A stretch of DNA of 64,000 nucleotides from Anaeromyxobacteraceae bacterium (GCA_035656915.1 DASRRJ010000018.1:49816-113815); one strand, 5' to 3'. Shown: positions 26,618-29,540, counted from the stretch's first letter. Notes: generated from the letters alone by a model not told the origin. A program made the numbers and translations.

Positions 26618-27025
26618 TCAGCCGCGCCGCCCCCAGCGCCCGCGCAGCACCACCTGGTACTCGCGCACGTCCACGCCCTTCAGCGCCTCGACCTTGCGCA
26701 CGTCGAGCGCGTCCCAGGGCACGTCGTGGATGGCGCCGCTCGCCTCGTCCACGAAGTGGTGGTGCGGCCGCACGTTGGGATCGAAGACCACCTTGCCCTC
26801 GGCGATGACGAGCTGCTTCAGCAGCCCTCGCCGCACCAGCAGGTTGAGCGTGTTGTAGACCGTCGCGCGCGAGATGCGCGGGTTGCGCGCGGCGACCACC
26901 TCGAAGACCCGGTCGGCCGACGGGTGGGCGACGGTGTCGAGGACGTACTCCGCCACCGCCCGCCGCTGCGCCGACGGCTGGATGCCGTGGCGCGACAGGA
27001 GCTGGGCGGCGAGGGCGTGATCCAT
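26618..27025 (-). CDS. Fur-family transcriptional regulator (PerR/Fur-like)
   Basis: 135 aa. It has a winged-helix region (RATVYNTLNLLVRRGLLKQL) and a regulatory HHHF..E metal site. It is divergent from a rubrerythrin operon. Confidence 0.85.
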   Translation of the reverse strand: MDHALAAQLLSRHGIQPSAQRRAVAEYVLDTVAHPSADRVFEVVAARNPRISRATVYNTLNLLVRRGLLKQLVIAEGKVVFDPNVRPHHHFVDEASGAIHDVPWDALDVRKVEALKGVDVREYQVVLRGRWGRRG

Positions 27026-27131
27026 GGCTCTTCACCTAGGGACGATTCACGTCGATTTCAACGCGAGCGCCGGCCGGCGGCGATTCCGGCCTCCGACCCA
27101 AGCGGGCCTTTCGCGGGGTGGCGGAGACGAA

Positions 27132-27146
27132 TTAGACGCTGTCTAA
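27132..27146. promoter_or_regulatory. Perfect 6-3-6 palindrome TTAGACgctGTCTAA in the Fur-family/rubrerythrin divergent intergenic region; candidate operator
   Basis: Read directly in the sequence. It lies 36 nt upstream of the rubrerythrin ATG, in the only AT-richer stretch of the 156-bp intergenic region. Confidence 0.45.
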
Positions 27147-27181
27147 ACCGTAACATCCCCCACGAACCAAGGAGCGCGAAG

Positions 27182-27601
27182 ATGCCCAGGCTGAGCGGCT
27201 CGAAGACCCACCAGAACCTCAAGGACGCCTTCGCCGGCGAGTCCCAGGCGAACCGGCGCTACCTCTACTTCGCCAAGGTGGCCGACGTGGAGGGCTACCC
27301 GGAGGTCGCCTCCAACTTCCGCGAGACGGCGGAGGGCGAGACCGGCCACGCGCACGGTCACCTCGACTACATCAAGGAGGTCGGCGATCCGGCCACCGGG
27401 CTGCCGCTCGGGGACACCGCCACCAACCTCAAGGCCTCCATCGCCGGCGAGACCCACGAGTACACCGACATGTACCCGGGCATGGCGAAGACCGCGCGCG
27501 AGGAGGGCTTCGCCGAGATCGCCGACTGGTTCGAGACGCTCGCCAAGGCCGAGAAGTCGCACGCCGGCCGCTTCGAGAAGATGCTCGGCGCGGTGTCGTA
27601 G
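27182..27601 (+). CDS. rbr: Rubrerythrin-family diiron protein (no rubredoxin domain)
   Basis: AAGGAG sits 8 nt upstream of the ATG. Diiron motifs E..E.RY ([11 protein letters not shown]), [10 protein letters not shown] and [18 protein letters not shown]...[10 protein letters not shown] are present. 139 aa. Confidence 0.85.
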
Positions 27602-27624
27602 CCGGGCCCCGGCGAGAGGTTCAC

Positions 27625-28992
27625 ATGAGCGGAGAGAGCGTGGAGCGGATCTCGTACCGGCCTACCGGGTGGCTCTCCTACGATCCGTCGGAGGAGAAGT
27701 ACTGGAGCGCCGAGGGGCTCCGGGCCGAGACGGTCCGGGCCTTCGAGATCTGTCACGGCTGCCGCATGTGCTTCAAGTACTGCGACAGCTTCCCCACGCT
27801 CTTCTCCCTCATCGACGAGCAGCACGGCGGAGACGTGCGCCGGCTCACCAACGGCGAGGTGGACCGGGTGATGGACGCCTGCTTCCAGTGCAAGCTCTGC
27901 GAGGTGCAGTGCCCGTACACCCCGCGGGACGGCCACGAGTTCCAGCTCGACTTCCCCAAGCTCGTGCACCGCCACGACGCGGTGAAGCTGCGGCGGCGCG
28001 GCCGGCCGACGCTGCGGGACCGCGTGCTGGGCGACCCGGACGGCGCCGGGCGGCTCGCGCGCGCCTCGCTCGGCCTCGCCAACGCGGCGAACCGCTCGCG
28101 GCCGCTGCGCGTGCTGATGGAGAAGACGGTCGGCATCCACCGCGACAAGCTCCTGCCCGACTTCGCCGCCCAGCCCTTCGACGACTGGGCCGAGGAGAAC
28201 GGGTGGGTGAAGGGCGAGCCCGGCGGCGAGGCGGTGCTCTTCCAGACCTGCTTCGTGCAGCACAACGAGCCGCAGCTCGGGAAGGACGCGCTGGAGGTGC
28301 TCGCCGCCTGCGGCGTCGACGCGCGGGTGGTGAAGGGGCTCGCCTGCTGCGGGATGCCGGCCTGGGAGCACGGCGACCTCGAGGCGCTCCGCCGCCAGGC
28401 GCGGCGGGACCTCGATCTCCTGCTCCCGTTCGTGAAGGCGGGGGCAAAGGTGCTGGTGGTGAACCCCACCTGCTCGATGATGATGCGCAAGGAGTGGCCG
28501 CACCTGCTCGAGGGCGCGGACCGGGCCCGGGCCGCCGAGCTCGCCGCGGCGGTGCGCGACCCCTCCGAGTTCCTCTGGACCTTGCGCGACGAGCCCCGCT
28601 TCGTGAAGAGCTTCCAGAGCGTGCCGCCGGGCGGCAAGGTGGCCTACCACGCCCCCTGCCACCTGCGCGCGCAGGGAGTCGGGTTCAAGGGGCGCGACCT
28701 GCTCCGGCGCATCCCCGGGGTCACCGTGGCCGCCACGGTGATGGAGTGCTGCGGCCACGACGGCACCTACGCCATGACCGTGGAGGGCTTCGGCCCGTCG
28801 CAGCGGGTGGGGAAGAAGGCCTTCGACGGCATGCGCGGAGCGGACGCCCGGGTCTGGGCCACCGACTGCCCGCTGGCGGCGCTCCAGTTCGCGCAGCACG
28901 CCGGCCGGCGGCCGCTGCACCCGCTCGCGATCCTGGCGCGCGCCACCCGCAAGAACGGCTTCGCCGACCTCGAGGAGGAGCGCCAGACATGA
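27625..28992 (+). CDS. (Fe-S)-binding oxidoreductase, GlpC/HdrD-like (2x[4Fe-4S] ferredoxin motif + two CCG cysteine-rich domains)
   Basis: It has [15 protein letters not shown] and [12 protein letters not shown] clusters. CCG-type motifs (CCGMP..., CCGHDG) typical of heterodisulfide-reductase-like proteins are also present. Confidence 0.8.
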
Positions 28993-29540
28993 AGATCGCG
29001 CGCGCCGAGATCCTGCGGCTGGAGGAGTACGACGCCCTGCGCCCGGTGGTGCGGGCCGCGGTGCTGGAGCTGAAGCGGCCGCGGCGCGTCCACGCCGGCC
29101 CGCTCACCTTCCTCTTCGAGAACGCCGACACGGTGCGCTACCAGGTGCAGGAGATGGTGCGGGCCGAGCGCCTCTACCGCGACGCCGAGATCCAGCACGA
29201 GGTGGACACCTACAACGAGCTGCTCGGCGGCCCCGGCGAGCTCGGCTGCACGCTGCTCATCGAGCTCACCGATCCGGGCGAGCGCGACCAGAAGCTGCGG
29301 GCCTGGCGCGGGCTGCCCGAGCACCTCTACGCGAGGCTCCCCGGCGGCCGCCGCGTGCGTCCCACCTTCGACCGCCGGCAGGTGGGGGACGACCGGCTCT
29401 CGTCGGTGCAGTACCTCCGCTTCGCGCTCGGCGCCGAGGCGCCGGTGGCGCTCGGGTGCGACCTGCCCGGCCTCCCGCTGGAGGTGGCGCTCACCGAGGC
29501 CCAGCGGACCGCGCTGCGGCAGGATCTGGCGGCCTCCTGA
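28989..29540 (+). CDS. DUF3501-family protein
   Basis: The ATG overlaps the upstream stop as ATGA. 183 aa. [20 protein letters not shown]... and the overall pattern resemble DUF3501, which commonly sits next to Hdr-like Fe-S proteins. The assignment is from memory. Confidence 0.55.

Follow-up and report, generated by a model that had tools for sequence, protein, structure and literature searches.

In a 64-kb stretch of DNA (74% G+C) from the metagenome-assembled genome of an Anaeromyxobacteraceae bacterium (GCA_035656915.1 DASRRJ010000018.1:49816-113815), we identified a gene for a Fur-family regulator that faces an operon of three genes, encoding a rubrerythrin (Rbr), an Fe-S/CCG oxidoreductase (RFO) and a DUF3501 protein. 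The whole stretch is referred to as the window. Between the regulator gene and the operon lies a perfect palindrome, TTAGAC-gct-GTCTAA (hereafter, the box), which we consider the candidate operator. The regulator is predicted to be an atypical PerR without a zinc site that probably represses rbr-RFO-DUF3501 until it is inactivated by peroxide. As far as sequences tell, this is a genuine local regulon for peroxide stress with good support, run by what appears to be a fairly ordinary switch. Already known are perR genes beside rbr, a rubrerythrin module of three genes, and PerR proteins that lack the zinc site. New are the specific box and its spread across phyla, neither of which we found in the literature searched; when the box sequence was searched for in combination with PerR, nothing relevant came up.

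The box accompanies relatives of the regulator in many phyla

One genome per species was scanned with an alignment of the regulator, yielding a set of 80 loci behind which stand two search patterns, one of them ISRATVYNT. The 27.3 kb that immediately flank the regulator genes contain 38 copies of TTAGAC-N3-GTCTAA at up to one mismatch, the remaining 648 kb two. This enrichment of some 450-fold lends weight to an earlier note on this DNA, in which the palindrome had been put forward as a candidate operator. Of the two distant copies, one precedes a gene for cytochrome c peroxidase; near the other, in locus L043, an OmpW-family gene lies on the minus strand at a distance of 118 nt.

Of the 38 closest loci (L001-L038), 32 have a box beside the regulator gene if up to two mismatches are allowed. 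The taxa in which the box occurs beside the regulator comprise Myxococcota, Acidobacteriota (Thermoanaerobaculia), Planctomycetota, Ignavibacteria, Eisenbacteria, Elusimicrobiota, Nitrospirota, Thermotogae and Clostridia; that is, a related regulator and an operator resembling the iron control element (ICE) of Irr are found together in at least nine phyla or classes. In most loci, the start codon of the regulator gene itself follows shortly downstream of the box, an arrangement that indicates autoregulation. The second frequent position is just downstream of the regulator gene, before the next gene.

This next gene, where checked with Pfam, encodes an AhpC peroxiredoxin (L003, L004, L007, L008 and L025), KatG (L010, L018, L026 and L032), a catalase (L020, L071 and L073), a Dps-like ferritin (L016, L055 and L072) or a di-haem cytochrome c peroxidase (L046 and L041). 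It specifies a rubrerythrin in the window and in L002, L024, L027, L033, L035 and L044. By their predicted products, the genes that follow the box constitute a peroxide-defence regulon, and the earlier reading of the locus as such gains support from the box preceding ahpC, katG, catalase, dps, ccp and rbr genes in relatives. The classical Irr targets hemB, suf, bfr and mbfA do not adjoin the box in the orthologous loci or in the metagenome contigs described below, and iron-uptake genes adjoin it in none of the loci. AhpC is iron-free, which argues against a pure iron-sparing logic, and the conservation of peroxide-detoxifying targets favours PerR-like control by peroxide over plain iron control.

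The palindrome stands alone in the window and is conserved in close relatives

The palindrome is the sole match in the window at up to two mismatches, and a weight matrix derived from the orthologous sites likewise yielded no further copy in the 64 kb, the palindrome scoring 31.5 bits and the runner-up 2.3. After shuffling, 18 out of 100 windows contained at least one match at up to two mismatches.

The same divergent arrangement exists in four Anaeromyxobacteraceae, i.e., the window and three others, including the cultured A. paludicola (AP025592.1) and A. diazotrophicus. The half-sites of the box are invariant amongst them, while the 3-nt spacer reads GCT, GGC, AGC or GTC: invariant half-sites around a changing spacer are the imprint expected of a dimeric DNA-binding protein. 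The alignment of the four intergenic regions shows as main conserved blocks the box, the Shine-Dalgarno sequence and one short block further upstream. The latter, ACCCAAnnGGGnC (27096-27108), is situated some 25 bp upstream of the box, and could be the site of a second factor or a promoter element.

In A. diazotrophicus (L082, 6603-7741), the orthologue of the regulator gene is followed directly by msrB and msrA, which encode methionine sulfoxide reductases. Between that orthologue and msrB/msrA, no box was found at up to three mismatches.

The regulator belongs to a cysteine-free branch

The regulator is 100% identical to a protein of an Anaeromyxobacteraceae MAG. There is not one cysteine in its 135 amino acids. 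Hence, it does not have the Zn(Cys)4 site found in classical PerR and Fur; the two CxxC pairs that mark this site in PerR are accordingly missing. The zinc site is also absent from the accepted Leptospira PerRA and is, thus, not universal among PerR proteins. Of the solved structures, that of Leptospira PerRA (5NL9) is the best match, followed by that of Bacillus subtilis PerR (2FE3). In the phmmer alignment to 2FE3, residues H34, D82, H88, H90 and D101 fall on the PerR ligands H37, D85, H91, H93 and D104, and N58, within ATVYNTL, aligns with N61 of the recognition helix of PerR (Asn rather than Arg). The ligand set, including the Asp and Asn equivalents, is invariant in 17 homologues, as is the motif PHHHF.

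The two Asp residues and the Asn have been used as criteria to separate PerR from Fur (PMC12754779, PMC8638967). Irr, likewise, features the Asp, the Asn and the HHH motif, and has zero cysteines (PMC8638967). The HHH motif is also present in CxxC-bearing relatives of the regulator and is, therefore, not specific to Irr. The regulator stays under the cut-off of the NCBIfam models for PerRB (85 bits; cut-off 250), IrrA (83; 150), PerRA (83; 200), Irr (79; 170), NF052545 (TransRegPerRClab; 66; 180) and Thermotoga-type PerR (59; 200), the PerR models being narrow and lineage-specific. Fur models give at most 37 bits.

The regulator is 33% identical to Bradyrhizobium japonicum Irr (verified sequence), 34% to Leptospira PerRA and 33% to B. 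subtilis PerR. A neighbour-joining tree (BLOSUM62) united Irr, Leptospira PerRA and the clade of the window in one cysteine-free group as a point estimate, the monophyly of which was recovered in 3 out of 500 bootstrap replicates, and the core clade of the window in 264 out of 500. Since bootstrap support is nil, we make no claim on the ancestry of Irr or on the branching order. On the strength of its sequence features, the regulator is assigned to a cysteine-free PerR/Irr-like branch.

Operator type and candidate promoters

The box has the same 6-3-6 layout as ICE, the consensus of which for Irr is TTTAGAA-N3-TTCTAAA (PMC1698941). Each half-site departs from ICE in its innermost base alone (C/G versus A/T), and the two motifs agree at 10 of the 12 core positions; among the orthologous sites, those of L014, L023, L030 and L039 match ICE exactly. 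The Bacillus Per box, TTATAATNATTATAA, is organised as 7-1-7, unlike the box described here, and variation of PerR boxes from lineage to lineage is known (PMC545781). In an analysis from 2006, Irr and the ICE motif were stated to be absent outside the alpha-proteobacteria (PMC1698941).

A recognition helix reading SRATVYNT accompanies the box in cysteine-free and in CxxC-bearing regulators alike, whereas Fur-family regulators with the helices SFATVYNT and SLRTVYQT, encoded beside the same operon, are found with other, 7-1-7-like boxes. A caveat to this pairing is that ISRATVYNT was itself one of the two patterns used to find the loci. We considered Arg53 of the recognition helix as the cause of the inner C/G and rejected it, since SRATVYNT regulators also occur with TTAGAA/TTCTAA boxes.

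In Polyangiaceae and Actinomycetota, rbr-RFO-DUF3501 is located beside genes for CxxC-containing Fur-family regulators, with other palindromes upstream, e.g., AACAATCATTGTT and TTAGAATCATTATTA (the set consists of L047, L048, L050, L052, L056, L058, L059, L061, L063 and L078). The association of the same operon with other regulators and other palindromes suggests that regulator subclades have been recruited repeatedly.

A distance of 5-7 nt separates the end of the box from the start of the regulator gene in many loci, and the right half of the box, GTCTAAT, contains a -10-like TCTAAT, which suggests that the half-site doubles as the -10 element of a leaderless transcript. For the upstream sites in L003-L029 with this gap of 5-7 nt, either the regulator mRNAs are leaderless, with the -10 element in the box, or the start codons have been mis-called.

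The box in metagenome contigs

We also scanned metagenome contigs for TTTAGACNNNGTCTAAA without regard to the neighbouring genes, and then considered the genes for which the match lies 0-400 bp upstream. Altogether, 27 of the 125 boxes are located upstream of relevant genes: 18 of rbr, four of a Fur-family gene, three of ahpC and two of katG. Most of the 18 rbr genes have RFO behind them. Amongst contigs with a G+C content of at least 0.55, in which chance matches to the box are rare, the gene downstream is rbr, katG, ahpC or a Fur-family gene for 20 of the 29 boxes.

The low-G+C remainder of the matches includes unrelated repeats and CRISPR spacers. In L122 (positions 2360 and 6074), the motif is part of two near-identical CRISPR spacers between GTTTTAATCGTACCACAGTGGAATTGAAAC repeats, and the five matches in L139, a contig of 32% G+C, are inside a longer dispersed hairpin repeat. 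In L157 (5363-6322; Ga0207421_10002300), an exact TTTAGACtggGTCTAAA box stands 7 nt before a gene for a cation diffusion facilitator (Pfam Cation_efflux and ZT_dimer); this cation-efflux gene may be a member of the regulon, for the export of metal, in one organism.

Layout of the locus

The four genes announced by the earlier note, i.e., the Fur-family regulator gene and, divergent from it, rbr, RFO and DUF3501, are all present in the table of open reading frames and identified by Pfam (Table 1). The intergenic region and its palindrome can be read directly from the sequence, and the translational coupling of the last two genes by ATGA also holds: the ATG of the DUF3501 gene overlaps the TGA of RFO. 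The rbr gene was recognised correctly, with a start that needs a small correction: the stated 36 nt from the palindrome implied 27183, while the ATG is at 27182 and 35 nt lie in between.

Table 1. Features of the regulator-rubrerythrin locus, in window coordinates
Feature	Position	Strand	Remarks
perR-like regulator gene	26618-27025	minus	135 aa; Pfam FUR (PF01475), E=2e-20, residues 14-125
Divergent control region common to the regulator gene and the rbr operon	27026-27181		156 bp
Conserved block ACCCAAgcGGGcC	27096-27108		kept in the intergenic regions of the four Anaeromyxobacteraceae
Possible -10 element of the regulator promoter, TCTAAT	27131-27136	minus	within the left half-site; suggested by analogy with the autoregulatory sites
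Candidate operator, perfect 6-3-6 palindrome TTAGAC-gct-GTCTAA	27132-27146		letters TTAGACgctGTCTAA / TTAGACGCTGTCTAA
Possible -10 element of the rbr promoter, TCTAAA	27142-27147	plus	within the right half-site; suggested by analogy with the autoregulatory sites
Shine-Dalgarno sequence of rbr, AAGGAG	27169-27174	plus	AGGAG invariant in the alignment of the four Anaeromyxobacteraceae genomes
rbr	27182-27601	plus	139 aa; Pfam Rubrerythrin, E=2e-30
RFO (Fe-S/CCG oxidoreductase), GlpC/HdrD-like	27625-28992	plus	455 aa; two [4Fe-4S] motifs and two CCG domains
DUF3501 gene (PF12007)	28989-29540	plus	183 aa; Pfam E=2e-49

On the other side of the regulator gene, an ABC ATPase gene (25132-25842) and a gene for a UPF0014 permease (25820-26614) resemble FetAB/YbbLM, a putative iron exporter. 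The pair is convergent with the regulator gene and ends 4 bp from its stop codon, and the same neighbours are present in A. paludicola. No box was seen upstream of the FetAB-like pair in the window; a functional link of this pair to peroxide or iron stress is speculative.

Rubrerythrin, RFO and DUF3501

The rubrerythrin carries two ExxH motifs (E53 and E124) and no rubredoxin domain, and it is of the aerobic, sulerythrin-like type: it scores 221 bits to the Rbr of Burkholderia pseudomallei (9ONM/4DI0) and 180 bits to sulerythrin (1J30). In RFO, CxxCxxCxxxC motifs extend over residues 43-53 and 86-96, and CCG motifs are found at C241-C242-G and C375-C376-G. Pfam recognises in it CCG, over two stretches, and Fer4 dicluster families; the GlpC models give 251 and 188 bits, both below the cut-off.

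A set of three co-localised genes, rbr-RFO-DUF3501, has been published as the aerobic-type rubrerythrin system, which is extant in 185 of 4461 genomes and, moreover, in the mitochondria of some protists (PMC5114695, PMC7050145, PMC12154734). The locus in the window has its defining traits, i.e., an Rbr without rubredoxin domain with a GlpC-like CCG protein and a DUF3501 protein encoded next to it. That RFO is the electron donor that replaces the rubredoxin domain is a hypothesis from the literature (PMC5114695, PMC12154734). Natural fusions of DUF3501 with RFO have been reported from Nitrosomonas. For B. pseudomallei Rbr, induction by oxidative stress and the binding of several metals have been reported, and sulerythrin has peroxidase activity (PMC12154734). 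The Saccharolobus PerR paper contains nothing on the regulation of sulerythrin.

Three loci from Thermoanaerobaculia (L024, L027 and L033) feature the gene order rbr-DUF3501-RFO, and their regulator gene is located upstream and in the same direction as the operon, rather than divergent from it.

Proposed mechanism and alternative explanations

The underlying mechanism could be as follows. A dimer of the regulator, with Fe2+ or Mn2+ at H34/D82/H88/H90/D101, would bind TTAGAC-N3-GTCTAA, a site that probably overlaps the -10 regions of both divergent promoters. When bound, the regulator would repress rbr-RFO-DUF3501 and probably its own gene as well. Reaction of H2O2 with the Fe2+ of the regulator would lead to oxidation of a ligand histidine, upon which the regulator would leave the DNA and the operon would be induced. 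The di-iron rubrerythrin would then reduce H2O2, with RFO most likely standing in for the missing rubredoxin domain as the supplier of electrons, while the DUF3501 protein, in which there is no obvious cofactor motif, may serve as an accessory or adaptor subunit. The separate parts of this scheme differ in strength. It is very likely that the regulator binds DNA and represses at the box; that peroxide, rather than iron or haem, is the signal is probable, a ranking that follows mainly from the presence of the iron-free AhpC in the regulon and from the lack of classical Irr targets.

Several observations weigh against this interpretation. Iron or haem proteins make up most of the regulon, which is also compatible with iron-responsive control, and the box is far closer to the ICE motif of Irr than to the Per box of Bacillus. 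The sequence features by which PerR would be told from Irr do not discriminate in the case of the regulator, as Irr has the same set, and there is no NCBIfam PerR model for which the regulator reaches the cut-off. A consensus promoter scan of 26500-29800 gave no match in this G+C-rich region, and terminators likewise none, so that the overlap of operator and promoter is conjectural. Sequence comparison revealed no homologue of RFO among the solved structures, and DUF3501 gave no informative fold match.

Our first hypothesis, a true Irr with an iron-regulated operon, was downgraded, as the neighbours of the box are peroxide scavengers, AhpC included, and the Irr scores are low. In a related, unlikely explanation, an Irr-like regulator sits on the ICE-like box at iron or haem scarcity and shuts off iron-rich proteins (Rbr, RFO, catalases, peroxidases and Dps), haem on the HHH motif releases or degrades it, and peroxide is at most a secondary signal. 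The absence of cysteines together with the invariant HHH fits that explanation, as do the single inner base per half-site that separates the box from ICE, the exact ICE sequence of some orthologous sites, the IrrA and Irr scores that are level with those of the Leptospira PerR models, and the label “iron response regulator” given by JGI to several homologues. In addition, basal alpha-proteobacterial Irr regulons have been predicted that consist of only ccp or a rubrerythrin-like gene (PMC1698941), and the same doubt has been raised over Leptospira PerRA and PerRB (PMC8638967). However, the scores for Irr and IrrA are far under the cut-offs of 150-170 bits, the haem regulatory Cys-Pro motif is missing, and identity with a genuine Irr, that of B. 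japonicum, is 33%; furthermore, the regulon includes the metal-free AhpC, hemB, suf, bfr and mbfA do not adjoin the box, and msrB and msrA lie beside the regulator gene in a sister species.

A plain metal-homeostasis sensor, Fur- or Mur-like, with an operon for iron handling instead of peroxide removal, could account for the FetAB-like putative iron exporter that adjoins the regulator gene both here and in A. paludicola, for the box before a cation-diffusion-facilitator gene in one metagenome contig and for the several metals bound by B. pseudomallei Rbr. The Asp, not Glu, at the position equivalent to D104 and the Asn, not Arg, in the helix are the reverse of Fur and Mur, and together with the scores of the Fur models and the lack of iron-uptake genes adjoining the box in any locus, they make such a sensor very improbable. 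The palindrome might also be bound by another transcription factor, encoded elsewhere, to which the Fur-family gene would be a mere neighbour: for most of the boxes upstream of rbr in the metagenomes, no Fur-family gene was detected on the contig stretch covered. We give little credence to that, as the regulator gene is the only gene common to 38 box-bearing loci, the box mostly lies just before its start (the classical signature of autoregulation), the 6-3-6 inverted repeat is a known architecture for the related Irr, and regulators with a different recognition helix beside the same operon have different boxes. A functionless, A+T-rich inverted repeat that arose by chance has next to no probability: while a 6-3-6 palindrome is not very rare in 156 bp, and shuffled windows did produce matches, the exact sequence is retained by different phyla in comparable positions and scores far above anything else in the G+C-rich window, its conservation already contradicting chance. 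The interpretation that we prefer is repression by a PerR without zinc site, relieved by peroxide.

Implications and comparison with known systems

The box provides a concrete operator sequence for a widespread and little-studied PerR-like branch that includes many uncultured phyla from soil and sediment, and it links control by peroxide stress to the aerobic-type rubrerythrin system. Its near-identity to ICE bears on whether cysteine-free PerR-like proteins, those of Leptospira included, sense peroxide or iron and haem, and on the origin of Irr. Tentatively, one could imagine that TTAGAC-N3-GTCTAA and a PerR with the SRATVYNT helix are an ancient pair, spread over many phyla, with the aerobic-type rubrerythrin operon as its commonest target, and that Irr and ICE are a late offshoot, re-purposed for haem and iron. 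If true, this would overturn the de novo origin of Irr and ICE within the alpha-proteobacteria, and peroxide regulons in uncultured Acidobacteriota, Planctomycetota, Myxococcota and others could be predicted from a ready operator.

The three proteins encoded in the operon are the same as those that co-localise in the aerobic-type rubrerythrin system (Cardenas et al. 2016, PMC5114695; Gray et al. 2020, PMC7050145), for which these papers describe neither a regulator nor an operator. PerR encoded beside rbr, with a local palindromic operator predicted from genome comparison, has been described in delta-proteobacteria (Rodionov et al. 2004, PMC545781) and in Polyangium (PMC12754779), but the rubrerythrins there are of the classical anaerobic type, with rubredoxin partners, and TTAGAC-N3-GTCTAA resembles none of the five PerR boxes predicted for delta-proteobacteria (PMC545781).

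As for the regulator, PerRA (5NL9) and PerRB from Leptospira interrogans share with it the site made up of three histidines plus two aspartates, the HHH(H) motif and the lack of structural CxxC pairs, and a likeness to Irr boxes has been reported for the (autoregulatory) sequences upstream of perRA (PMC8638967). They differ in that identity is about 34%, the organism is a spirochaete pathogen, the helix reads SRATIFNN in place of SRATVYNT, and neither a defined consensus box nor a rubrerythrin-RFO-DUF3501 target has been reported there. The PerR of B. subtilis (2FE3/3F8N) has the five regulatory ligands, the signature of Asp and Asn and a peroxide-defence regulon (ahpC, katA and others) in common with the regulator, and is set apart by its Zn(Cys)4 site, its 7-1-7 Per box and an identity of 33%. 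Alpha-proteobacterial Irr, finally, has a cysteine-free C-terminal domain, the HHH motif, a nearly identical helix (ATVYNTLN) and the same operator layout; yet Irr senses haem and iron and controls genes for haem, Fe-S clusters and iron storage, whereas the relatives of the regulator described here adjoin genes for peroxide scavengers.

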